Origin: Sulfurimonadaceae bacterium
GTDB taxonomy: Bacteria > Campylobacterota > Campylobacteria > Campylobacterales > Sulfurimonadaceae
Direction of reading: 5' to 3'
Length of the DNA stretch: 10,665 bases
NCBI GenBank assembly: GCA_041571435.1
Contig: JBFFUI010000052.1
Coordinates: forward strand, 1-10,665
Shown: piece by piece, positions 1-10,665 of the stretch
Position numbering within the stretch: the first letter of the stretch is position 1
Layout: the number at the start of each line of letters is the position of its first letter
Translations under genes and position numbers: made by a program
The notes under the pieces: model-generated
The model's input: the letters and a program-made list of their open reading frames with translations, nothing else
The model's database searches: none
Told to the model about the DNA's origin: nothing

Positions 1-1
1 T

Positions 2-58
2 GTTGCTGGTGACACACGCGGATTGCAGCTAGTAGATGTTAGTGCGTTTAAGCGTTAA
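2..58 (+). CDS. 3' end of an upstream CDS (partial), possibly an LVIVD-repeat beta-propeller protein
   Basis: Frame 2 reads VAGDTRGLQLVDVSAFKR then TAA (56-58). It resembles the LVIVD repeat pattern (VA-x(4)-GL-x-I/L-VDVS). Only 18 codons are visible. Confidence 0.45.
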   Translation, partial: VAGDTRGLQLVDVSAFKR

Positions 59-79
59 TGATTTAATAGTTAGAGGGGA

Positions 80-197
80 GCCATACTTGGCAGGTTCTCA
101 CGATCAAGTGAGAGTGACGAAAAAGCAAAGTCGGCACCGACTTTAGGGTTTTAGTTTGTCCTAAGGACTACGCATTCCCATTAAAAAAGAGGGAATG
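80..197. repeat. Cluster of short inverted repeats (REP-like element, structured RNA or terminator region)
   Basis: GCCA/TGGC 80-91; TCTCAC/GTGAGA 96-113; AAAGTCG/CGACTTT 127-144; GTCC/GGAC 158-168; CATTCCC/GGGAATG 173-197. Lies between two apparently convergent genes. Confidence 0.5.
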
Positions 198-206
198 TTG
201 GAAGTA

Positions 207-1538
207 CTATTTCAGTACTTTAGAGAGTATTGCCTCTTCATCGATGTCGTCGCTTAGGTATTTGACGACAACAAGGTTTTCCGTCTCATTGATGTACCAC
301 TCTGCAATGGCGTCATGCTCAAGTGCTTCGAGTTTTTCCATGTCAACCTCGTCGATGTGTTTGAACAGGTGGCTGTGCTTTGCCGGGTTGGAGAGCTTCA
401 CCGCTGTCCAGACCAACCAGAGCACGCCGACAACGCCAAGGCTGATACCGATCATCTTTGGATTGGAGATGCCCAGCATCAGACCCGCGAATGTCCCGCC
501 GAGGAAGGTCATGAAGTAGGCGACTGAGTTTGAGATACCCAGTGCAGCCCCTTTCTGGTGCACTTTTGCGTATTTGGAGATCAGTGACTGCACCAGCGGC
601 TCCATCATGTTAAAGCCGATGAAGAAACTGACGACACCGACAACAAAGAGTGTTGAAGAGCTTGTAAAGCCCATCAGTAAAAATGCGACGATAAAGAGGA
701 CGATAGAGATCAGAAAGATCTGTTTCGCTTTGTTGTACTTCTCACCGAACACCGCGGCCGGTCCCATCGCGATGAGCCCGAAGATCATCGCCGGCAGGTA
801 GGCCATCCAAAGCTCGGACTTCTCCCAGCCGAAACCGCCGTTTGCAACGGTGTCGGTCAGGATAAGCGGAATGAGAACGAAGGCAACGGTCATCAGCCCC
901 TTTTGCATCCCGTTGATGATGATCATCCCCAGAAGGTTCGGGTCTTTGATAATATCGGAGGTCTTTGTCGTGTTGTGGTAGATGTGACGGATGCGCGGCG
1001 GTGTCGGTACCTTGGTGAAGAGAAGCAGCATTGCGACGACAGCCAGTCCGGCGGTCATCCAGAAGAGAAAGTCAACGCCGTATGCCGCACCGAGTACCGG
1101 TCCAAGCCCCATGGCAACGGCAAAGGAGATCGCGATCGTACCGCCCATCATCGCCATCGCCTTGCCGCGCACCTCTTCGGGAACAAGGTCGGAGATCATC
1201 GCTGTGACGACGGCGCCGATCGCACCGGCACCCTGCAGGAAACGACCCAGCATCAATATATAGATATCGCTGCTCAGAGCGGCAATGACCGAACCGATAA
1301 AAAAGATCACCAGGCCGACAAAGAGTGTCGGTTTACGGCCGATCTTGTCACTGATCGTGCCGAACGGGACCTGAAAAAGGGCCTGAGTCAGTGCGTAACC
1401 GCCAACGATGACACCGACTAAAAGCGGCGTTGCCCCTTCCATGCCCATGGCGTAGACTGAGAGAACCGGCAGAACCAGGAAGAGTCCTAAAAAGCGCAGC
1501 GACAAGATAGCTGATAGGGGCATAATCGTTTTGAACAT
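207..1538 (-). CDS. MFS transporter (YajR-like drug/metabolite efflux), 443 aa
   Basis: About 12 hydrophobic segments, MFS motif A (GTISDKIGRKP) and GRFLQGAG. Start moved from 1826 to ATG 1538 (MFKTIMPL): AAAGG RBS upstream, and the longer ORF would overlap rdgB. Confidence 0.92.
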   Translation of the reverse strand: MFKTIMPLSAILSLRFLGLFLVLPVLSVYAMGMEGATPLLVGVIVGGYALTQALFQVPFGTISDKIGRKPTLFVGLVIFFIGSVIAALSSDIYILMLGRFLQGAGAIGAVVTAMISDLVPEEVRGKAMAMMGGTIAISFAVAMGLGPVLGAAYGVDFLFWMTAGLAVVAMLLLFTKVPTPPRIRHIYHNTTKTSDIIKDPNLLGMIIINGMQKGLMTVAFVLIPLILTDTVANGGFGWEKSELWMAYLPAMIFGLIAMGPAAVFGEKYNKAKQIFLISIVLFIVAFLLMGFTSSSTLFVVGVVSFFIGFNMMEPLVQSLISKYAKVHQKGAALGISNSVAYFMTFLGGTFAGLMLGISNPKMIGISLGVVGVLWLVWTAVKLSNPAKHSHLFKHIDEVDMEKLEALEHDAIAEWYINETENLVVVKYLSDDIDEEAILSKVLK

Positions 1539-1596
1539 GAGTAACCTTTTGAGACAAGAGTGTTGGAATTTTCGCATAAACTGCGTTAAAATGCGC

Positions 1597-1602
1597 ATTA
1601 TA
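1597..1602 (-). promoter_or_regulatory. Putative sigma70 -10 box for the MFS gene
   Basis: TATAAT on the minus strand about 60 nt upstream of the 1538 start, in the AT-rich divergent intergenic region. Confidence 0.5.
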
Positions 1603-1674
1603 GTACAGAAGCTGTTTTTTTTATTGCAAAGATAAAAATAATATGCCGAGTTAAAAGTATCATAAGGAATTACA

Positions 1675-2280
1675 ATGCGAATAGTCTTGGCCACATCCAA
1701 CAAGGGTAAAGTACGAGAGATCAAAGCGATGTGCGAGGACTTTGACGTTGTAGCGTTCAGTGAGCTGATCGAGCCTTTTGAGATCGTCGAAGATGCGCCG
1801 ACGTTTAAAGGCAACGCCCTGCTCAAAGCAAAGGCCGTTTATGACGCTTTAGGTGATGAAGAGGCGATCGTTCTCTCCGATGACAGCGGCATCTCCGTTG
1901 ATGCTTTGGACGGTGCACCCGGGATCTACAGTGCGCGCTACGGCGGTGAAAATGCCAGCGACAAAGACAACCTGCAAAAAGTGATGGATGAGGTCAAGGC
2001 CAAAGGTCTTGAAAGCTCACCGGCGCACTACACGGCAGCGATCGCCATTGTGACCAAAGAGGGCGAGCAGGTCGTACACGGCTGGATGTACGGTGATGTC
2101 ATCACGACGCCGCGCGGCGAAAACGGCTTTGGTTACGATCCCTGTTTTATTCCTGAAGGATTTGACAAGACCCTGGGTGAACTGGATGATGAGGTCAAAA
2201 AAGGACTTTCGCACCGTTCCAAGGCCCTCTATCTGGCAAGACTGGTTCTTCATACAATCAAAAAAGCGAGAGAACATTAA
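1675..2280 (+). CDS. rdgB: RdgB/HAM1 family non-canonical purine NTP (dITP/XTP) pyrophosphatase
   Basis: Motifs [32 protein letters not shown] and SHR; RBS AAGGA upstream. Confidence 0.97.
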
Positions 2281-2309
2281 TCTTCAAAATCGTTAAAGCT
2301 TCTCTGGAA

Positions 2310-2315
2310 TATAAT
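2310..2315 (+). promoter_or_regulatory. Putative -10 box for the ncRNA-RT unit
   Basis: Perfect TATAAT predicts a start near 2321-2323, which is where the a2-like arm begins. Confidence 0.65.
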
Positions 2316-2321
2316 GGTTGC

Positions 2322-2506
2322 AAGGCAGTAGCTATTTACGATTTCGATCGTGTTCAGATGCGTTCTTGTAGTGCGTTTCGCCTACTCTTTTTGACGTATC
2401 TACCGAACTCCGTGCTGCCTGATTCATACCCAAACCCCGATGTAGAAAATGCGGACGTATTACTATATATAATAACTCTTGCTGCCTCGAGGTTTGTGTA
2501 TATGAA
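2322..2506 (+). ncRNA. Putative retron-like ncRNA (msr-msd) / structured leader of the RT gene
   Basis: AGGCAGTA (2323-2330) is complementary, with one G-U, to TGCTGCCT at both 2413-2420 and 2480-2487. G2331 follows in an AGC context. Hairpin ACGAT-TTCG-ATCGT 2338-2351. Stem AGATGCGT/ACGTATCT 2356-2401 encloses GTAG-T-GCG-TTT-CGC-CTAC. Long stem 2423-2440/2487-2506. Directly upstream of a retron-type RT. The 3' boundary is uncertain. Confidence 0.7.
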
Positions 2507-2514
2507 AAGGCGGT

Positions 2515-4098
2515 ATGATGAAAAAACAGTACAAGATGATCAAACTTCCAAAAGGCAGAGGAACGTTCCGGACCATCTATGCCCCTTCCAAACCCTACAA
2601 GAGAAAACTCGCATCATTTTTGCTTGACCTGCAGCAAAAAGTCCATAACGCGGATCATGATGAGATCGTCCACGGTTTTATGCGTGGCCGCGGTCCGGTC
2701 AGCAACGCGCTGAAACATGTGGGATACGCCTACACCCTCTCCCTTGATCTGAAAGATTTTTTTGACAGTGTGACCTCAGAGATGGTCGAAGAGTATCTCA
2801 GTGAGGAGGAGCGCGAACTCTGTTTTATAGACGGCATCGCCAGACAGGGCCTTCCGACAAGCCCGCTTATTGCAAACATGGCACTGCTGAAGCTTGACAG
2901 ACAGATCAAGGATGCTATTGCGGAGGAGGGGGTCTTTACCGTCTATACCCGCTATGCAGATGATCTGATCTTCTCTTTCAACCATGAAGCGTTCGCGCCA
3001 ACTCTGGAGACTCTGGTCGAGAAGATCATGACTGAGGGAGGCTTTCAGCTTAACCGTAAAAAGAGAAGACTGCAGAGTGCCAAAAACGGTCGACGCATGA
3101 TCACCGGTATCGCCGTAGACGAACACGGCATCCACCCAAGCCGAAAACTCAAACGCCGTATCCGTGCAGCGGTACACCAAAAAAACAGAGAATCGGCCTT
3201 TGGCCTGCTCTCGTGGGCGGAGTGCAAAGAGCCCAAAGCTTTTTACACCGATCGCGATCTGCTGAACAAAAACATTTTTAGAGAGGAAGCTCTCGACCTC
3301 TCCAATGATTTTTATCTCTCCGATCTGCTTTCGTTTGAGGCGTATGTCGATGCGGTAGAGGAAGATTTCGGCAACTCGGATTTGGCGCATGAACATGACA
3401 GAGAGAAGTGGGAAAGTCAAAAAAGCGCCTTTCTGGCACAGCGTGAAGCGTTTTACCAAAAGGAGAAGCAACTTGCTGATGCGGCTCGAAAAGTGGCTCG
3501 AGAAGATATGGAGAAACATTTTATTGAAGAGGAGGAAGCGGATCAGAAAGAGGAGATGCCGCTTCGCCAGAGAGAGACTGTCCCCAAACCTCCTCCTCGA
3601 CCGGCCACGGCTTTTGAGAAGAAGGAAGAAAAGCAAAAGGAGCTCAACATCGACTTTGATACGTTAAAAGAGATTGAACAGGAAGAGGTGGCAAATTTTC
3701 AAAACGAGAAAAAAGCGCATCGCCGAAAAAGAGAGGCGATCGCAAGTGCCAATGAGGAGAATGAGGCGAAGAGAAGGTCGCTGAACAAAGTGTTTATGGC
3801 CAGTCTCTTGCCGATAGTGCTGTTTCTTGGCGCGATGAGCTACTACTTTTCGGCTACAGAGATTAAGAAAAAAGCAGCGTATCCTCTCTTCGTCAATGTA
3901 ACGCCCTTTGATGCAAAAGTGCAGATTATGAATATTTCTGAAGCGTATGCGACGGGGATTGAGCTAAAGCCCGGAGAGTACGATATACGTATCTCTAAAC
4001 AAGGCTACAACCCCCAACGCTTCTGGATTACGATGGGACAGGAACCGCTTGTCGTAACCCGGGAACTGACCAAGGTCAAGAAACGCAAGGTCTATTAA
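2515..4098 (+). CDS. Retron-type reverse transcriptase fused to a charged linker, a single TM helix and a C-terminal PEGA-like domain
   Basis: RT aa 1-241: LPK..R.IYAP, HGF, NALKH (aa 64-68, retron region X), DLKDFF, QGLPTSP, YTRYADD (YADD aa 147-150), N.KK, ITG (aa 196-198, VTG-like region Y). Aa 242-425 is rich in E/K/R. Aa 426-445 VFMASLLPIVLFLGAMSYYF is hydrophobic. Aa 456-520 LFVNVTPFDAKV...LKPGEYDIRISKQGY matches the PEGA pattern. RBS AAAAGG 2505-2510 is better spaced for ATG 2518. Confidence 0.9.
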   Translation: MMKKQYKMIKLPKGRGTFRTIYAPSKPYKRKLASFLLDLQQKVHNADHDEIVHGFMRGRGPVSNALKHVGYAYTLSLDLKDFFDSVTSEMVEEYLSEEERELCFIDGIARQGLPTSPLIANMALLKLDRQIKDAIAEEGVFTVYTRYADDLIFSFNHEAFAPTLETLVEKIMTEGGFQLNRKKRRLQSAKNGRRMITGIAVDEHGIHPSRKLKRRIRAAVHQKNRESAFGLLSWAECKEPKAFYTDRDLLNKNIFREEALDLSNDFYLSDLLSFEAYVDAVEEDFGNSDLAHEHDREKWESQKSAFLAQREAFYQKEKQLADAARKVAREDMEKHFIEEEEADQKEEMPLRQRETVPKPPPRPATAFEKKEEKQKELNIDFDTLKEIEQEEVANFQNEKKAHRRKREAIASANEENEAKRRSLNKVFMASLLPIVLFLGAMSYYFSATEIKKKAAYPLFVNVTPFDAKVQIMNISEAYATGIELKPGEYDIRISKQGYNPQRFWITMGQEPLVVTRELTKVKKRKVY

Positions 4099-4703
4099 GC
4101 TTTAGAGGCGGTCATTAAAAAGAGCGGGTACTCGCTGCCATTCTCTTTTGTCACTGTGTGGGCTCGTTCAAACCTTACATCGGTAAAACCGTACTTTCTT
4201 GCTATTTCGGCCAACTTCTCCTGATCAAAGCCAAAATGGAAAACCCCTTCATTGCCATGGGCGTGAAAGCTTCCATCCTCCTCTTCAAGATCGGCAATGG
4301 CAATAAACCCTTTTGGCTGCAGTAGAGCAGAGAAGGTCTTGAACAGAGCATCCAAATCCTCGATATGGTGCATGCTCATAGAACTGACGATGCCGTCAAA
4401 CTGTTTTTCAGATGAAAACTGCAGGATGTCACTGTGCACGGTCTCAATCGTACAGTCCTCCCATATTTTGGCATTGACCTCCAACTGGTTCAGCATTTCC
4501 TGTGAGAAGTCAAGTGCTGTCATATGCCCTACGAAGGGGCAGAGGTGTTTGGTCAGAAGGCCGGTACCGGCACCGAAATCCAGCAGATGCATCTCTTTGG
4601 AAAGCGCCAGTGTATTGAGAATGGCATCGGCGATATTTGAGGCAAGCTGCTGTCGGGTCTGAGAGCTGTCCCATTCCTTAGCGACTTTGTCGAAACGTGA
4701 CAT
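4095..4703 (-). CDS. Class I SAM-dependent methyltransferase
   Basis: Motif I LLDFGAGTG, LDFS.EML, FDGIVSSMSMHH, L.PKG.I.I.D; N-terminal FD..A..WD; RBS AAGGAG. Confidence 0.93.
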   Translation of the reverse strand: MSRFDKVAKEWDSSQTRQQLASNIADAILNTLALSKEMHLLDFGAGTGLLTKHLCPFVGHMTALDFSQEMLNQLEVNAKIWEDCTIETVHSDILQFSSEKQFDGIVSSMSMHHIEDLDALFKTFSALLQPKGFIAIADLEEEDGSFHAHGNEGVFHFGFDQEKLAEIARKYGFTDVRFERAHTVTKENGSEYPLFLMTASKA

Positions 4704-4728
4704 GGAGACTCCTTGATGATATCGGCAG

Positions 4729-4737
4729 ATTTTATCA
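4729..4737 (-). promoter_or_regulatory. Putative extended -10 promoter of the methyltransferase gene
   Basis: TGATAAAAT on the minus strand about 25 nt upstream of the start. Confidence 0.5.
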
Positions 4738-4841
4738 TGCTACAGTAAACAGTAGTGGCACAGGTTGACGATTAAAATATCTCGTAAGTTTTATTTAACC
4801 GTCACTGCTGTAATGTTTTGCAATTCAATTAAGGAACGATT

Positions 4842-5309
4842 ATGATCAGAAAAATCGCAACAACCGCGCTGCTTGTCTCAACAATGGCAGTAAATGTATT
4901 CGCGTATGATACGGACAAGGCAAAAGAGTTCGACAAGTTCTATTCCAGCTTTACACAAAAAGCCTGTGCAAACTCCACGCTCTATATCGAGGGTGACGAG
5001 GTGATGAAGATGATGCGCAAACAGAAGAAGTTTATGTTTCTTGACATCCGTACACCGGGTGAATTGGCAGTGGTCGGAATTAAGACATCCAACACGCTTG
5101 AAATCCCGGTAGAGCACCTGTTCGAAGCCAAAAATCTTGACAGACTGCCTAAAGATGAGCCGATAGTTGTCGTCTGTTACTCCGGAACGCGTGCAGTGAT
5201 GGCGGTTGCGAGTCTGAAGATGATCGGGTTTACAAACACGCGTGTTATGAAAGGCGGGGTCATGGGTCTTTCCAAAGCAAGCAATACAAAAACGGCGCCC
5301 GTCAAGTAA
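4842..5309 (+). CDS. Exported rhodanese-like domain protein (sulfurtransferase)
   Basis: Signal peptide MIRKIATTALLVSTMAVNVFA; FLDIRTPGE; LPKDEPIVVVCYSGTRA with the active-site Cys; GFTN...KGG; RBS AAGGA. Confidence 0.9.
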   Translation: MIRKIATTALLVSTMAVNVFAYDTDKAKEFDKFYSSFTQKACANSTLYIEGDEVMKMMRKQKKFMFLDIRTPGELAVVGIKTSNTLEIPVEHLFEAKNLDRLPKDEPIVVVCYSGTRAVMAVASLKMIGFTNTRVMKGGVMGLSKASNTKTAPVK

Positions 5310-5438
5310 GCGTGTTGTTCCGGCTTCCGATAGGATGGGCCGATGTCAACAAGGGTAAACGCTGTTTATACGCTTCTTATTACAATCTTAAATAACGCTA
5401 TTATGCATGGTTGATAGGATTAAGATAAACAAAGCGTC

Positions 5439-5447
5439 TGTTATAGT
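5439..5447 (+). promoter_or_regulatory. Putative extended -10 promoter for rubredoxin
   Basis: TGTTATAGT about 20 nt upstream of the ATG, followed by an AAAGGA RBS. Confidence 0.45.
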
Positions 5448-5467
5448 ACATCCATAAAGGATTCAAT

Positions 5468-5638
5468 ATGGCAAAAAAATATATATGCACTGTCTGCGAA
5501 TGGATCTATGATCCGGAGGTGGGCGACCCTGACGGCGGTATCGCTCCGGGAACAGCTTTTGAAGATATTCCGGACGACTGGGTCTGTCCGGATTGCGGTG
5601 TCTCAAAAGATAGTTTTGAAGAGTACGTCGGCGATTAG
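5468..5638 (+). CDS. Rubredoxin, 56 aa (absent from the ORF track)
   Basis: Manual translation [56 protein letters not shown]. Two CxxC motifs plus [21 protein letters not shown]; good RBS. Confidence 0.97.
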
Positions 5639-5641
5639 CCT

Positions 5642-6403
5642 TTAGAGCAGTAGCAGGATGACCCCGAAAATAATGCGGTAGATACCGAAGGCGACAAAAG
5701 TAAAGCGCTGTAAAAAGACCAGAAAGAGTTTGATGGTCAGGTAGGCGACGACAAAGGCGGCAAGGAAGCCGACGGCAAAGGCGCCCCAGTTGGCATCGGC
5801 AAACTCCTGGTAGTGTTTGAGCAGGTCGTAGCCGCTTACAGCCCCCATGACGGGGATCGCCAGCAGGAATGAGAATTCGGCACTGGTCTTACGGTTCATC
5901 TTTAACAGCATCCCTCCGATGATCGTCGCACCGGCTCGGCTTGTACCGGGGATGAGTGAAAAGACCTGGGCGACACCGACAAGAAAAGCCTGTTTGTAAC
6001 TGACGTTTTCAACCTCATTGGTGTGGCTCTCTTCCTCTTTGTAAAGCTTCTCGACGATCAAAAAGACAATCCCGCCGATTATAAACATGATGGCCACCGT
6101 GTTGACCGTAAAAAGCTCTTTGATGAGGTCTTTAAAGATGAAGCCGATAGCGGCAAGCGGTAAAAAAGCGACAAAAAGTTTCTGCCACAGCTCGATCTTT
6201 TTGAGTGTCAGTTTTTCGCGGTAGACCAGCATTACAGCCATGATCGCAGCAAACTGAATGATCACTTCGTAGGCTTTTGTAAGATTGTCCTGAGAGACGC
6301 CGAGGTACTTGCTGGCAACGATCATATGGCCGGTTGATGAGATGGGAAGAAACTCGGTAAACCCTTCGATAATACCGATAATAATAGCCTGAAAAATATC
6401 CAA
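5642..6403 (-). CDS. uppP: Undecaprenyl-diphosphate phosphatase (BacA/UppP), 253 aa
   Basis: EGFTEFLPISSTGH, IPGTSRAGATI and AEFSFLLAIP motifs. Start moved to TTG 6403 (MDIFQAIIIG), which has an AGAGGGA RBS. Confidence 0.96.
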   Translation of the reverse strand: MDIFQAIIIGIIEGFTEFLPISSTGHMIVASKYLGVSQDNLTKAYEVIIQFAAIMAVMLVYREKLTLKKIELWQKLFVAFLPLAAIGFIFKDLIKELFTVNTVAIMFIIGGIVFLIVEKLYKEEESHTNEVENVSYKQAFLVGVAQVFSLIPGTSRAGATIIGGMLLKMNRKTSAEFSFLLAIPVMGAVSGYDLLKHYQEFADANWGAFAVGFLAAFVVAYLTIKLFLVFLQRFTFVAFGIYRIIFGVILLLL

Positions 6404-6432
6404 AATAGGTCCCTCTGTTGTTTGATTTTTAT

Positions 6433-6441
6433 ATTTTAGCA
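6433..6441 (-). promoter_or_regulatory. Putative extended -10 promoter of uppP
   Basis: TGCTAAAAT on the minus strand about 30 nt upstream of the TTG start. Confidence 0.5.
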
Positions 6442-6539
6442 CGCGGCGGATAAAAGAGCTGTTGTGAACATCTGCCTCTTTTTTTTTCGCAACCCTGAAA
6501 AGCGTCCAAAAATTCATTTAGAGCTAAACACTTATTGGC

Positions 6540-6545
6540 TATAAT
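6540..6545 (+). promoter_or_regulatory. Putative -10 box for the aminotransferase-hisZ-purA operon
   Basis: Perfect TATAAT in the divergent intergenic region, preceded by A/T tracts. Confidence 0.5.
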
Positions 6546-6630
6546 ACGCGGTTTGAAAATTATACGGCATAGGTATCATGTAAGAGACCGGGTGTAGGGA
6601 CTTTACATGATGTTTATCAAAGGAACCACA

Positions 6631-7749
6631 ATGTTACTTTTTACTCCAGGACCAACCCCTGTTCCAGAATTTGCCCGTGTCGCGATGGCAGGAGAGACAC
6701 TTCACCACCGTACACCTGAATTTGAGGCGATCTTTGCCGATGCACGTGCGCTGCTTTTCAAGTTGTTTAAAACGGATGAGGTGATCATGCTCGCCTCTTC
6801 GGGTACCGGTGCGATGGAAGCGGCGGTGACGAACCTCTGTCACGATACACTTTTGAGTATCAACTCGGGCAAGTTCGGTGAGCGTTTCGGCAAGATTGCC
6901 GTTGCAAGCGGACTTAAGAATATCGAGATCAAAAACGAGTGGGACACACCGGCAACGGTCGAGGAGGTGGTGACGGCGCTGCAGGCCAACCCGCATATTG
7001 ATGCGCTGACCATTCAGGTCTCCGAGTCTGCGGGCGGACTTCGTCACAACGTTGAAGAGATCGCAGCAGCGGCTAAAGCGATCAACCCCGCTATCATGGT
7101 GATCGCTGACGGTATTACGGCAGTCGGCGTTGAGCGCATCGATGTGACCAATATCGACTGCCTTATCGCGGGAAGCCAAAAAGCGTTGATGCTGCCGCCC
7201 GGTCTTGCAATCCTTGGTCTGAGCAGTGCAGCTCTCGAAAAAGTGGGCAAAGGTAAAGGGTACTACCTGAACCTGGCTTCCGAGATCAAGAAGCAGTCGC
7301 AGAACACGACGGCCTATACCGCGGCCACAACACTGATCATCGGTCTTCGTGCCGTTCTTCAGCATGTCGAAGACAACGGCGGTCTGGATGCGCTGTATGA
7401 TGACACGGCACGCCGTGCAGAAGCGGTTCTGGCTGCAATGCAGGCGCTCGGGCTTCATGTCTATCCAAGTGCTCCGGCACGTTCGATGACCACGATCGAT
7501 GACGAAGACGCTTCAGAGATTCGCAACCTGCTGAAAAACGAGTTCGGCGTGAATGTCGCCGGTGGACAGGATCATCTTAAAGGAAAGATCTTCCGGATCA
7601 ACCAGATGGGCCTGATCGAGCCGTATGAGATCGTCTGGGTGGTCAATGCCGTCGAACTTGCACTTAAAAAACTTGGCCGTCGTGAATTTGACGGAACGGC
7701 TAGCCGGGTCTTTAACGAGACCTATTTTAAAACAATGCTAGAGAAATAG
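6631..7749 (+). CDS. Class V PLP-dependent aminotransferase (alanine-glyoxylate / serine-pyruvate / phosphoserine family)
   Basis: LLFTPGPTP, HHRTPEF, SSGTGAMEAA, GKFGERF, GSQKALMLPPGL (PLP Lys), AGGQDHLKGKIFRI. Start at ATG 6631 after AAAGGA. Confidence 0.93.
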   Translation: MLLFTPGPTPVPEFARVAMAGETLHHRTPEFEAIFADARALLFKLFKTDEVIMLASSGTGAMEAAVTNLCHDTLLSINSGKFGERFGKIAVASGLKNIEIKNEWDTPATVEEVVTALQANPHIDALTIQVSESAGGLRHNVEEIAAAAKAINPAIMVIADGITAVGVERIDVTNIDCLIAGSQKALMLPPGLAILGLSSAALEKVGKGKGYYLNLASEIKKQSQNTTAYTAATTLIIGLRAVLQHVEDNGGLDALYDDTARRAEAVLAAMQALGLHVYPSAPARSMTTIDDEDASEIRNLLKNEFGVNVAGGQDHLKGKIFRINQMGLIEPYEIVWVVNAVELALKKLGRREFDGTASRVFNETYFKTMLEK

Positions 7750-7757
7750 AGACAATA

Positions 7758-8600
7758 ATGATATTTGAACACGAAATACCGGAGGGTTCCAAGCTCTACT
7801 TCGGCGATTCCGCAAAACGTAAACGCGAGATCGAGCAAGTTGCCAGCGAAGTGCTTTATAGTGACGATTTTGAAGAGATCGTAACACCGCTCTTCTCCTA
7901 CCACCAGGATGACTCTATCGCAGACGTCAAAGAGCTGGTGCGTATAAACGATACCAAAAACAATAAGATGAGCCTGCGCGCGGACTCGACGATCGATGTC
8001 GTCCGTATCATCACCAAACGCCTCGGCCGCAACACGACACACCGTAAATGGTTCTACATTCAGCCGATCTACCGCTACCCTTCAACAGAGCAGTACCAGG
8101 TGGGCGCTGAAGTGATCGGAGAGTCTGACCTGAGTGTTGCACTTAACCAGGCGATGGAGATATTTAAACGTCTGGAAGTCGAGCCGCTGTTGCAGATCTC
8201 AAACATTGCGATCCCGAAAAAACTGTCAAAATTGCTCGATATCGAGTTGGATGATTTCCGTCATATCAATATTCAGAAGTTTTTGGCACTCGACATCGAG
8301 TGGTTGACAAAACTGGTCTACCTGCAGCATCCCGAAGATGTGGATGCTGTTATCGAGATCGTGCCTGAGGAGATCAAGGAAGAGCTTCTCAAAATGAAAG
8401 AGATGTGCGCAAAGATCGCCTATAAAAACAAAGTGATCGCACCGCTCTATTATGCAAAGATGCTCTATTACGACGAGCTCTTTTTCAGAGTAATCGAAGG
8501 CAACGCGATCCACGCACGCGGCGGACGTTACGTCAATGATGATGTGACATCAGTAGGTTTCGCCATCTACACCGACACACTAATCGAAGCAAACAAGTAA
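7758..8600 (+). CDS. hisZ: ATP phosphoribosyltransferase regulatory subunit
   Basis: HisRS-like motifs EIPEG, EEIVTP, LRADST, E.YQVGAE, GGRY, VGFAIY; lies directly upstream of purA, a common arrangement. Confidence 0.88.
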   Translation: MIFEHEIPEGSKLYFGDSAKRKREIEQVASEVLYSDDFEEIVTPLFSYHQDDSIADVKELVRINDTKNNKMSLRADSTIDVVRIITKRLGRNTTHRKWFYIQPIYRYPSTEQYQVGAEVIGESDLSVALNQAMEIFKRLEVEPLLQISNIAIPKKLSKLLDIELDDFRHINIQKFLALDIEWLTKLVYLQHPEDVDAVIEIVPEEIKEELLKMKEMCAKIAYKNKVIAPLYYAKMLYYDELFFRVIEGNAIHARGGRYVNDDVTSVGFAIYTDTLIEANK

Positions 8601-8612
8601 GGAATAGACAAT

Positions 8613-9869
8613 ATGAGTACAAAAGCAGATTTGATCGTAGGGATACAATGGGGTGACGAAGGCAAGGGGAAGATCGTTGATGCCCTCGCATGCAAATATG
8701 ACATGGTGTGCCGAAGTCAAGGTGGTCATAATGCTGGCCATACGATCTGGGTAGACGGTGTCAAATATGCACTTCACCTTATCCCATCGGGTGTTCTTAA
8801 CCCTGATGCTATCAACGTTGTCGGCAACGGTGTTGTCCTCTCTCCGGAGTCGATCATCAAAGAGATGGAACAGTTTGACGGGCTGGAAGGTCGTCTCTAT
8901 ATTTCTGACAAAGCACACCTGAACCTCGGTTACCATGCACTGATCGACCAGGCAAAAGAGCGTCTAAAAGGTGACAAAGCGATCGGTACGACCGGAAAAG
9001 GTATCGGGCCGGCATATTCGGACAAGATCAACCGTACCGGCTTCAGAGTCGGTGAACTACTGGATCCTGCCAAACTATGCCAAGGTATTTTGGACTATTT
9101 TGAGCAGAACCGTGCGATCTTTGATGTCCTTGAGATCGCTACACCAAAAGAGAGTGAACTGCTGGCAGAGCTTGAAGGGTACAAAGCGAAGCTGGCACCG
9201 TTTATCACTGACACGACGCAGATGGTCTGGAAAGCACTCGATGAAGATAACAAGAAAGTACTGCTTGAAGGTGCACAGGGAACACTGCTTGACATCGATC
9301 ACGGCACCTACCCGTATGTCACATCATCATCGACAGTCAGTGCCGGTGCCTGTACGGGTCTGGGTATCAACCCAAAAGATATCGGCAAGGTGATCGGAAT
9401 CGTCAAAGCGTACTGTACCCGTGTCGGTAACGGTCCGTTCCCGAGTGAGGATTTCGGTGAAGACGGTAAACGTCTCGGCGAACAGGGGCATGAGTTCGGA
9501 ACGACAACGGGACGTGCGCGTCGATGCGGTTGGTTTGATGCTGTTGCGACGCGACACGCTTGCCGACTGAATGGTGTAGATGAGCTCGCCTTGATGAAAC
9601 TGGATGTCCTTGACGGCTTTGATGAAGTGAAGGTCTGTGTTGCCTATAGCTACAACGGTGAAGAGATCAACTACATGCCGGCAGACCTGGAAAATGTCAC
9701 GCCGGTCTATAAAACATTCAAAGGGTGGACAGGCTCTGTCGGTGTACGCGAGTTTGATAAACTTCCGCAGGATGCACAGGACTTTGTCAAGACGATCGAA
9801 GAGATCAGCAAGACAAAAGTCGGCATCATCTCGACATCACCTGAACGCGAAGACACGATCCACATGTAA
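8613..9869 (+). CDS. purA: Adenylosuccinate synthetase
   Basis: [64 protein letters not shown]. Confidence 0.99.
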
Positions 9870-10086
9870 AGAGAGCTTCAGTACCGTCTGTACCGGAGTT
9901 CACCTTCTTCTACTCTGTTAAAACAGACGAGTGCACGAAGCACTCTCTCCTCGAAACCTGACGTTTGCAATTCAACCATTTTAAATGGTAATGCCGTTAT
10001 TATTACAATGTCTAGCTTTTTACTTTTACCTCTTTGTAACCAAAATTACAGTATTATCCAAAAAAAATTACACTTAGGGTCTTCGT

Positions 10087-10638
10087 ATGAAAGTAACACT
10101 CTCACATGTACCACGTATTGCTAGCAGAATCGCTATTGAACTTAACAAGAGCGGCCTAGTCACGATGACTAAAGGCCTTGAACCGGTCGCTAAAGAGGCT
10201 GAAAAGATCTTTGTAGAGAGTGTAAAAAAAGAGCAGGAGCTCGAAGAGCGTGTCAACGAGATGCTTGATGATAACGAAGATGATATTGAGGAGATGCTGG
10301 CGGACGAGCGTCAACTATTCTTTATGATCAAAAAGAAGCTGGCTCCGGAATATGGCGTCATCCTTTCGTATGAGGACCGCTACTCCGATATTGCACACAA
10401 AATCCTTGACGAGCTCTATGAAGAGGATTTGATCCATTTTGATGTCACGGAGAACCGTATCAAGAACATCATCTATAATGCGATCACGGGTTATATCGCA
10501 AGTAATGATGAGATCGATGATGCCGTCATGGAGAAGATCCGTTCGTATAAACGCCGCATTATCCCGGGTACGGAAGAGTTCGACATCATCCATGAAAAAC
10601 TTTACAACGAAGAGCTGCAAAAGAGAGGACTTGCCTAA
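10087..10638 (+). CDS. DUF507 family protein
   Basis: Acidic helical 183-aa protein with LFFMIKKKLA and IIPGTEEFDIIHEKLY.EEL.KRG, as recalled for DUF507 proteins preceding carA in Campylobacterota. Confidence 0.85.
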   Translation: MKVTLSHVPRIASRIAIELNKSGLVTMTKGLEPVAKEAEKIFVESVKKEQELEERVNEMLDDNEDDIEEMLADERQLFFMIKKKLAPEYGVILSYEDRYSDIAHKILDELYEEDLIHFDVTENRIKNIIYNAITGYIASNDEIDDAVMEKIRSYKRRIIPGTEEFDIIHEKLYNEELQKRGLA

Positions 10639-10665
10639 TGAACACTGTTTGGATCTACCTTGAAA
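10638..10665 (+). CDS. carA: 5' end of a CDS, probably carbamoyl-phosphate synthase small subunit (partial)
   Basis: ATG overlaps the DUF507 stop (TAATG), GAGGA RBS upstream. MNTVWIYLE resembles CarA N-termini, and the gene order fits. Only 9 codons are visible. Confidence 0.65.

Follow-up and report, generated by a model that had tools for sequence, protein, structure and literature searches.

What a retron-type reverse transcriptase (RT) could be doing when a membrane helix and a small, presumably external, domain are attached to it is the question raised by a gene on contig JBFFUI010000052.1 of a Sulfurimonadaceae bacterium (Campylobacterota; GenBank assembly GCA_041571435.1). The stretch of DNA analyzed, hereafter the window, comprises positions 1 to 10,665 of the forward strand (10,665 nucleotides, nt). 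The gene encodes a protein of 527 amino acids (aa), in which the RT is followed by an acidic module, a linker, a predicted transmembrane helix and a C-terminal beta-sandwich (Table 1). The explanation that we consider the best one, with a probability of about 0.5, is a self-contained retron of undescribed architecture, whose fused tail replaces a separate effector. The parts of this explanation differ in strength: that the locus is a retron, i.e. an RT with its cognate non-coding RNA (ncRNA), equipped with a membrane-anchored tail is very probable, while an anti-phage role with the tail as effector is put forward tentatively, at slightly less than even odds.

An initial annotation, made from the letters of the window and a list of its open reading frames (ORFs), had described one uninterrupted ORF carrying a retron-type RT, and both statements are borne out. 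The frame extends from 2515 to 4098, and as only three in-frame codons precede it before a stop (an open frame of 530 aa), a hidden N-terminal extension is ruled out. The Pfam model RVT_1 matches aa 12-187 (E-value 1.5e-17) and is present in all 46 sequences of the family alignment (A1), which consists of the window protein and 45 full-length homologous clusters. As hallmarks of retron RTs, passages of Mestre et al. 2020 (PMC7736814) give region X, an NAxxH motif between RT2 and RT3 with the histidine most conserved, and region Y, the triplet VTG with the glycine most conserved. Region X of the window protein reads NALKH (aa 64-68, nt 2704-2718), where A65 and H68 are invariant among the 46 sequences and N64 occurs in at least 90% of them. 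Region Y reads ITG (aa 196-198, nt 3100-3108), with isoleucine in place of the valine; no variation was seen at I196 and G198, and at least 90% of the sequences have T197. Between these lies YADD (aa 147-150, nt 2953-2964), of which Y147, D149 and D150 are invariant; the initial annotation had placed all three motifs exactly. Among profile models, those of retron RTs gave PADLOC RT_II-A at E 1.6e-43 and NCBIfam retron_St85_RT at E 1.9e-43, with the non-retron models weaker (group II intron RT 5.8e-14, Drt2 8e-10). All 14 sequence matches in the PDB are retron RTs, and so are all of the best 17 chains listed by Foldseek for the full structural model.

The type of this RT was another matter. PADLOC scores were spread over type II-A (147.1 bits), XIII (144.8), III-A (143.1 and 142.9) and XI (140.1), none of which stands out, and the NCBIfam model for the type II-A RT, retron_St85_RT, scored 148.8 bits, less than the 235 bits of its curated cut-off. 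Typical retron RTs have an N-terminal extension that is missing here, the PADLOC RT_II-A alignment beginning at profile position 38. Furthermore, the PADLOC retron models cover only the RT part, those of fused types reaching aa 3-251 at most; the type XI model RT-Protease_XI, for instance, aligns aa 3-225 with profile positions 31-265 of 506. As a control, two type VII-A1 genes from Sulfurimonadaceae matched the RT-DUF3800 models from end to end at 270-309 bits, compared with 147 bits for the window protein. In passages of PMC7736814, the types with a fused RT are I-C (Toprim), VII-A1 (DUF3800), XI (trypsin-like protease) and XII (TIR). The window gene resembles these in being a single ORF with the third component C-terminal to the RT and an ncRNA alongside, but differs in that Pfam detected no nuclease, protease or TIR domain in the tail; Toprim, DUF3800, trypsin-like protease and TIR were all absent from the window protein by Pfam. 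Judged by its sequence, the RT is thus of retron kind and fits no assigned type, in agreement with the initial annotation, which knew of no such architecture: it lies outside the 13 types given in the consulted passages of that survey.

The nearest relatives of the RT share 40-53% identity with it over aa 1-240 only. They come in several forms, namely proteins of ~430 aa, stand-alone RTs of ~300 aa and some RT-PRTase fusions. The ~430-aa proteins (metagenome loci L053-L117; P0051-P0121) make up a large group, in which the RT, likewise lacking the N-terminal extension, is followed by a conserved C-terminal fusion domain of ~190 aa that no Pfam model matches, and PADLOC sees their RT only. The look-alikes of this domain in the Atlas were viral hypothetical proteins with scores below 0.9, i.e. 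leads only. These sister proteins look like another undescribed RT fusion. One sister RT (P0078) was searched in viral contigs and gave no match, and another (P0052), compared with 401 genomes of the phylum, matched only the RT part of the window family, in two included genomes of the window's genus.

The second component of the proposed retron, the ncRNA, was found in the 234-nt gap between the upstream gene rdgB and the RT gene. Folded as a single sequence it has a minimum free energy of -32.3 kcal/mol (z -3.5), and the RNAalifold consensus contains the same four helices. To assess covariation, 29 loci, 15 from genomes and 14 from metagenome contigs, were aligned with MAFFT, giving 25 distinct rows. 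In this alignment, 99.2% of the cells pair, as compared with 28-52% in slid controls, and compensatory changes occur at nine pairs, against 2.3 ± 1.1 in shuffles (0 of 500 reach nine) and four at most in slid controls. Six of the nine covarying pairs lie towards the base of the long stem, and L050, the most divergent member, also compensates in the a1/a2 duplex. A smaller set of 15 loci gave the same picture; an alignment fitted to the covariance model that included two weak non-family matches (A7) inflates the counts and was not relied on. The covariance model (R1) found one match per genome in 15 out of 16 genomes of the window's genus, the same 15 that harbor the protein, none in 135 genomes of other genera, and a match at each of the 14 metagenome loci of the family for which upstream DNA is available. 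On 64 sister-RT loci it gave two weak matches only (E 0.081 and 0.98).

The retron msr-msd pattern, according to passages of PMC7736814, consists of paired terminal repeats, one to three msr hairpins, a long msd stem-loop and a branching G at the end of a1. In the window ncRNA, a1 and a2 pair over 8 bp and enclose a single hairpin and a long stem-loop, and G2331, directly 3' of a1, occupies the position of the branching G, which makes it a candidate branch point from sequence alone. From the end of the ncRNA to the RT start codon there are 12-30 nt in most loci. The TATAAT box preceding the ncRNA is taken as its promoter because of its conservation and position; a generic sigma-70 scan, which found no full -35/-10 promoter there, gave no support. 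Terminator-like sites were at chance level in a terminator scan.

Between the ncRNA and its RT gene, the window carries a lineage-specific spacer, in which positions 2426-2448 and 2479-2501 form a hairpin and 2480-2487 is a second copy of the a2 octamer. The ribosome-binding region (2508-2515) is a near-copy of a1. A longer homologous spacer, with an extra insertion of ~100 nt containing a hairpin capped by G5/C5, is present in L005 and L006. When 200 nt of the window are folded, a2 pairs with the ribosome-binding region and not with a1, a predicted pairing that could act as a translational switch. Such a switch would suit a different explanation of the RNA, namely that it is not a retron template but a leader or regulatory RNA, or an RT-binding RNA as in DRT-type systems, with no branched msDNA being made. 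The RNA is short and belongs to no Rfam family: an Rfam scan of the window at E ≤1 gave nothing at the ncRNA, its one match, to a long non-coding RNA family (nt 9632-9697, E 0.3), being at chance level. The near-invariant tip of the P4 helix, with a like hairpin upstream of a sister RT (see below), would also agree with a non-template RNA. The pairing of a2 with the ribosome-binding region is, however, confined to the window and L003, and the combination of a1/a2 duplex, invariant G, small hairpin and long stem-loop is the retron pattern as outlined in passages of PMC7736814, next to an RT having the retron-specific regions X and Y. We therefore regard a non-template RNA as very improbable.

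The third component of the proposed retron would be the part of the protein beyond the RT. AlphaFold2, run on A1, gave predicted local distance difference test (pLDDT) scores mostly above 90 in the RT and of 86-92 at aa 456-517, i.e. both the RT and the C-terminal domain, for which the initial annotation had called for a structure prediction, were modelled with high pLDDT. Scores were low at aa 244-273 and aa 343-385 (below 50 in the latter). Long helices are predicted at aa 296-346 and aa 381-446, the second of which continues into the membrane segment. What the initial annotation had taken for a charged linker of ~185 aa proved to be two things. The description stands for aa 321-420, which are variable (mean pairwise identity 0.41) and rich in four residue types (E 22, A 13, K 13 and R 9 of 101 residues), but not for aa 241-320, which are as conserved as the RT itself (0.74 and 0.73, respectively). 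This acidic module has a net charge of -9, 12 aromatic residues and a pLDDT of 45-66. No Pfam model matched it, and a profile of aa 236-322 found a single protein among 1.84 billion representatives, itself a family member; by these sequence comparisons the module is an orphan with no detectable homologue outside the family. An ESM Atlas query with aa 236-527 returned no usable match, and all 31 matches obtained with the tail (aa 421-527) belong to the window family.

Hydropathy supports the single helix that the initial annotation had placed behind the basic residues KRRSLNK, as well as its statement that no N-terminal signal peptide is present. Kyte-Doolittle windows of 19 aa exceeding 1.6 begin only at aa 422-427, the highest (1.84) being that of aa 426-444 (nt 3790-3846), and this sole segment above 1.6 spans approximately aa 423-446; in other family members the peak is as high as 2.28. 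The first 60 windows do not rise above 0.11. Averaged over the 46 members, lysine plus arginine number 4.6 in the 15 aa before the helix versus 1.6 in the 15 aa after it. This agrees with the positive-inside rule and with the proposed topology, N-terminus in and C-terminus out, and fits a cytoplasmic RT and an extracytoplasmic C-terminal domain.

That the outer domain is PEGA-like, another claim of the initial annotation, holds at the level of the family and of the predicted fold, but not by the Pfam score of the window protein itself. Its match to PEGA (PF08308; aa 458-507, E 0.051) scores 13.9 bits, the gathering threshold being 20.8 bits, whereas 22 of the 46 members reach E ≤0.01, and P0029, the highest-scoring of them with 25.0 bits, exceeds the threshold. 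The separate model of the domain (pLDDT 81) matched, in Foldseek, the transthyretin-like domains of carboxypeptidases D and N (E ~1e-3), and its best VIA-align match was to carboxypeptidase D (5aq0_B; Z 7.8, root-mean-square deviation 1.8 Å, 67 aa aligned). We take these transthyretin-like domains of carboxypeptidase D to be those of Pfam CarboxypepD_reg, related to PEGA at the clan level. A Z below 8 counts as common in VIA-align, and the match therefore supports a generic beta-sandwich of the PEGA/CarboxypepD_reg type and nothing more specific.

All parts of the protein appear to be under constraint. From three close pairs with unsaturated synonymous divergence, the ratio of nonsynonymous to synonymous substitution rates (dN/dS) was 0.09-0.12 overall, and by region 0.07-0.09 in the RT, 0.02-0.12 in the acidic module, 0.12-0.16 around the helix and 0.05-0.21 in the beta-sandwich. 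For the linker the values were 0.15-0.28, apart from one near-identical pair of sequences with hardly any changes (1.29). As estimated from these pairs, purifying selection maintains every part of the protein, including the outer domain.

An outer domain under purifying selection (dN/dS 0.05-0.21) indicates that it does something, and this, together with the layout of cytoplasmic enzyme, stalk, one helix and small outer domain, recalls single-pass sensors. Accordingly, the protein might be a receptor-like RT, in which the periplasmic sandwich senses an envelope cue, e.g. peptidoglycan or outer-membrane damage or the adsorption or injection of a phage, and, through the helix and the stalk, switches cDNA synthesis or the release of the RT-msDNA particle. 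This was one of two functions suggested in the initial annotation, the other being a membrane tail that acts as the effector. Single-pass bacterial Ser/Thr kinases have a cytoplasmic enzyme, one helix and an extracytoplasmic PEGA or similar sensor; the layout is alike, but the enzyme here is an RT with its own template RNA, and only the generic fold is shared. A fold match to the periplasmic part of the kinase PpkA in a partner complex (9k1u_B; Foldseek E 9.7e-3, Z 5.2) points in the same direction, but is weak. No ligand site or partner was identified, beta-sandwiches of 80 aa are common and mostly structural, with many unrelated matches at Z 5-8, and we know of no RT that is regulated in a receptor-like manner. 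A receptor-like RT is consequently judged improbable.

The fusion is conserved among close relatives. A search of 5.8 billion clustered proteins yielded 432 matches at E ≤0.001 among 7999 scored candidates, and among the best 120, which were listed, at least 45 clusters are full-length homologues, with 100% query cover, 51-72% identity and lengths of 517-569 aa. Their source names include Campylobacterota, Sulfurimonadaceae, Helicobacteraceae and one named Sulfurimonas isolate (P0024). Among 201 genomes of the family Sulfurimonadaceae, the full-length protein was found in 15 out of the 16 genomes of one genus, to which the window belongs, the genome without it being only 56% complete, and in none of the 185 genomes from 22 other genera. 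The gene is also the sole RT gene in the genome of the window. Out of the 15 genus genomes, 12 have full-length frames with no stops; one gene is split on two contigs (G064), one is cut by a contig end, and in one genome (G115, 72% complete; L016:1501-2304) codon 244, at the junction of RT and tail, is an in-frame TAA. This TAA replaces the conserved Tyr244, and could be a sequencing error, the mark of a pseudogene or a natural split. The stop in G115 and the split in G064 are what might be said for an artefact, i.e. a chance fusion, a misassembly or a frameshift joining an RT to an unrelated membrane-protein gene. This is refuted by the 12 full-length frames, which show that the fusion is no assembly artefact, as well as by at least 45 further full-length clusters from several sources, 10 metagenome loci covering the full-length fusion, and purifying selection on both halves; its probability is practically nil. 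The fusion is thus not limited to one assembly, a possibility raised with the initial annotation, and none of the other outcomes named there as refuting it was obtained either.

The position of the gene is equally stable. Directly upstream, on the same strand, rdgB is found in 13 of 15 genome loci, and it is upstream in 13 of 14 metagenome loci, the exception being L050, which has a rhodanese gene upstream and uppP downstream. In the other two genomes (L006:3468-4580, minus strand; L020:3-1250, plus strand), it is not rdgB but the gene of a glycine-rich protein of ~410 aa, which looks like an outer-membrane beta-barrel by its sequence, that adjoins the ncRNA. The neighbors are housekeeping genes, namely those for Ham1/RdgB, BacA/UppP and an aminotransferase, hisZ and purA. 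In three of five other genera examined, rdgB and uppP are immediate neighbors, with no block of RT, methyltransferase and rhodanese genes between them. Furthermore, RT distances track rdgB distances (r 0.78; Mantel test 0/5000; 11 taxa), with ranges of 0.03-0.43 for the RT and 0.01-0.25 for rdgB. The genus-wide fixed site, the abutting rdgB and uppP elsewhere and the co-divergence with rdgB together point to a single insertion in the genus ancestor and vertical descent thereafter.

Several observations speak against the reading of the locus as a self-contained retron with the tail as effector. In the msd-like tip of the RNA, six of the seven pairs never vary, and the seventh does so only to G-U, in 2 of the 25 distinct sequences; in addition, a sister RT in L088 is preceded by a similar hairpin. 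There, the weak match to the ncRNA model (L088:919-1004, E 0.081) is situated just upstream of an RT with 48% identity, and the hairpin is almost identical to the invariant tip in the window, with the closing pair changed from G-C to C-G. A near-invariant tip with such a counterpart fits an RT-recognition element better than an msd that is free to vary, which makes the copied part uncertain, and it hints that the tip may be recognized by this RT clade. As for the protein, the C-terminal domain has a net charge of +6 and a very basic end, which is unusual for a periplasmic domain, so that the topology is not certain. Its PEGA score in the window protein is below the Pfam cut-off, its fold match is within the range rated as common, and we know of no toxic activity of a single helix with a beta-sandwich of 80 aa. 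The stop codon of G115 falls exactly where the tail begins. Lastly, a fixed site between housekeeping genes in 15 of 16 genus genomes is unlike typical defense genes, and a vertical, genus-wide distribution of this kind weakens a simple 'defense island' reading. The type VII-A1 retrons of the same bacterial family form a contrast, being patchy and present in at most three of 185 genomes. Weak RT matches occurred in three of these 185 other-genus genomes, and the two examined are of type VII-A1 (L017:568-2376, minus strand; L018:1351-3087, plus strand).

Those last observations would be accounted for by domestication of the retron for a host function that has nothing to do with phage defense, e.g. 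a membrane-tethered particle with a structural or regulatory role in the envelope (anchoring, scaffolding or msDNA-based regulation). Presence in all genus genomes but one that is 56% complete, the fixed site with rdgB directly upstream in most loci and housekeeping neighbors, the single RT in the genome, purifying selection on all parts and co-divergence with rdgB are all in its favor, and the abutting rdgB and uppP in three of five other genera would fit one ancient, retained insertion. Vertical inheritance is, however, compatible with defense as well: the myxobacterial retrons (Mx162/Mx65, type XIII) are reported to be vertically inherited within their bacterial group. To our knowledge, the retrons with a tested role act in phage defense. 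No host pathway could be linked to it, evolution is faster in the RT than in rdgB (0.03-0.43 versus 0.01-0.25), and passages of PMC8632793 give retrons defense roles only. Domestication is hence considered rather unlikely; phage defense is tentatively favored over it. A variant that appears quite unlikely is a host-adopted transmembrane device, in which the beta-sandwich reads the envelope and controls the RT-msDNA particle via the stalk, or the reverse.

The locus has the sequence features of retrons and lacks those of the published types, and we infer a new retron variant whose third component is the fused tail of stalk, helix and sandwich. The TATAAT promoter would drive the ncRNA and the 527-aa protein, with an active RT in its first 240 aa, on one transcript. 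The RT would bind the ncRNA and prime on the 2'-OH of G2331, beside the a1/a2 duplex, and a stem-loop region within approximately 2353-2412 would be copied into multicopy single-stranded DNA (msDNA) of at most ~55 nt. The resulting RT-msDNA particle would be tethered to the cytoplasmic membrane on its inner side, with the beta-sandwich on the outer face if the predicted topology is right, and the fused tail would stand in for what in other retrons is a separate third component. On the analogy of type IV (Ec48), phage infection could lead to the msDNA being lost or modified and so free the tail, which would then disturb the membrane and abort the infection. The retron identity of the RT, the structured ncRNA inherited along with it, the helix, the beta-sandwich, the conservation and the purifying selection on every part are established here, and we infer msDNA synthesis, topology, the defense role and the membrane effect.

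Type IV is the closest in concept. In passages of PMC7736814 and PMC8632793, Ec48 has a separate effector with two transmembrane segments, and cell death via this membrane protein is proposed. As far as these passages describe it, the likeness extends to a retron RT with an upstream ncRNA, a membrane-bound third component and no enzymatic effector domain. The differences are that the membrane part is here fused to the RT, with one helix instead of two, an outer beta-sandwich, an acidic module and a long stalk, that no separate membrane-protein gene flanks the RT in any locus examined, and that the gene occupies a fixed housekeeping site and not a variable island. Type XIII (Mx162/Mx65) differs in having separate accessory proteins (passages of PMC7736814) and long msDNAs, with no membrane anchoring described. 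More recently, two lineages akin to type XI, TXI_C2like as well as TXI_noncan_h, have been reported with accessory proteins containing WYL and DnaB_C (Toro 2026, main text, PMC13712802). These resemble the window family in keeping NAxxH and VTG and in having non-protease C-terminal extensions and newly modelled ncRNAs; the main text of that paper makes no mention of membrane, transmembrane, PEGA or Campylobacterota. No description of an RT-transmembrane-PEGA retron architecture was found in the retron literature consulted, although supplementary tables may hold members as unclassified RTs.

Table 1. Features of the retron-like locus and its adjacent genes, with positions in the window.
Feature	Position	Strand	Basis or remark
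-10 box TATAAT	2310..2315	+	Invariant in 15/15 aligned genome loci; 7 nt before the ncRNA
Structured ncRNA of msr-msd anatomy, 98 nt	2323..2420	+	Fold, covariation, covariance model
a1 repeat	2323-2330	+	8-bp duplex with a2
Invariant G directly 3' of a1	2331	+	29/29 loci
Hairpin P2, 7 bp, UUCG loop	2336-2352	+	Fold, RNAalifold
Stem-loop P3/P4, 15-bp interrupted	2357-2400	+	P4 tip (2368-2385) nearly invariant
Conserved single strand, 12 nt	2401-2412	+	Precedes a2
a2 repeat	2413-2420	+	8-bp duplex with a1
Lineage-specific spacer between ncRNA and RT start	2421..2514	+	Window and L003 only
Gene of predicted membrane-anchored retron-type RT	2515..4098	+	Uninterrupted ORF, 527 aa
Retron-type RT domain, aa 1-240	2515..3234	+	Pfam, PADLOC, NCBIfam, structure matches, motifs
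Acidic, aromatic-rich conserved module, family-specific, aa 241-320	3235..3474	+	26 invariant positions in 46 sequences
Variable E/K/A/R-rich linker, aa 321-422	3475..3780	+	Low identity; long helices predicted in part
Single predicted transmembrane helix, aa 423-446	3781..3852	+	Hydropathy
C-terminal beta-sandwich of PEGA/carboxypeptidase-regulatory (transthyretin-like) kind, aa 456-517	3880..4065	+	Pfam at family level, predicted fold
Conserved basic C-terminal tail KVKKRKVY	4072..4095	+	R524, K525 and Y527 invariant in 46 sequences
S-adenosylmethionine-dependent methyltransferase	4095-4703	-	Stop overlaps the RT stop (4095-4098)
Rhodanese-domain protein	4842-5309	+	CYSGTR active-site loop; hydrophobic, signal-peptide-like N-terminus

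The adjacent genes were considered as possible further parts of the system. The rhodanese gene is the only one that is always adjacent, i.e. at every locus with enough flanking sequence, the rearranged L050 included; in the window, the methyltransferase gene on the opposite strand separates it from the RT gene. As an accessory gene it was not retained, a copy with 51% identity being present at an unrelated site in an RT-less genome of another genus, and a link to the RT is uncertain. The methyltransferase was rejected, since it is present in only some loci, being absent or a remnant in several (the latter in L010 and L012), and can be regarded as a passenger whose presence in the inserted block varies. 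A conserved separate effector was not found at any locus examined. On the other side of rdgB, an ORF for a major facilitator superfamily transporter (207-1826, minus strand) overlaps the rdgB start (1675) by ~150 nt. Its first ~75 codons look non-membrane, and translation probably begins at an internal ATG.

Retron types are told apart by the third component, and a fusion of RT, membrane anchor and extracytoplasmic domain that lacks an enzymatic effector would add a type to the known ones. With one protein and an RNA of ~100 nt, the system is a compact one for asking how an RT-msDNA particle could be coupled to an output at the membrane, and its RT core of 240 aa and short, covariation-supported ncRNA may interest retron engineers. 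Genetics in a native host may be possible, as a named isolate is among the members (P0024). For these Sulfurimonadaceae, in which the gene behaves as one vertically inherited at a fixed site throughout a genus, the locus offers a test case for retron domestication. If the host-adopted device were true, it would be the first receptor-like RT, and the first retron with a core function that is not defense or that is coupled to the envelope.

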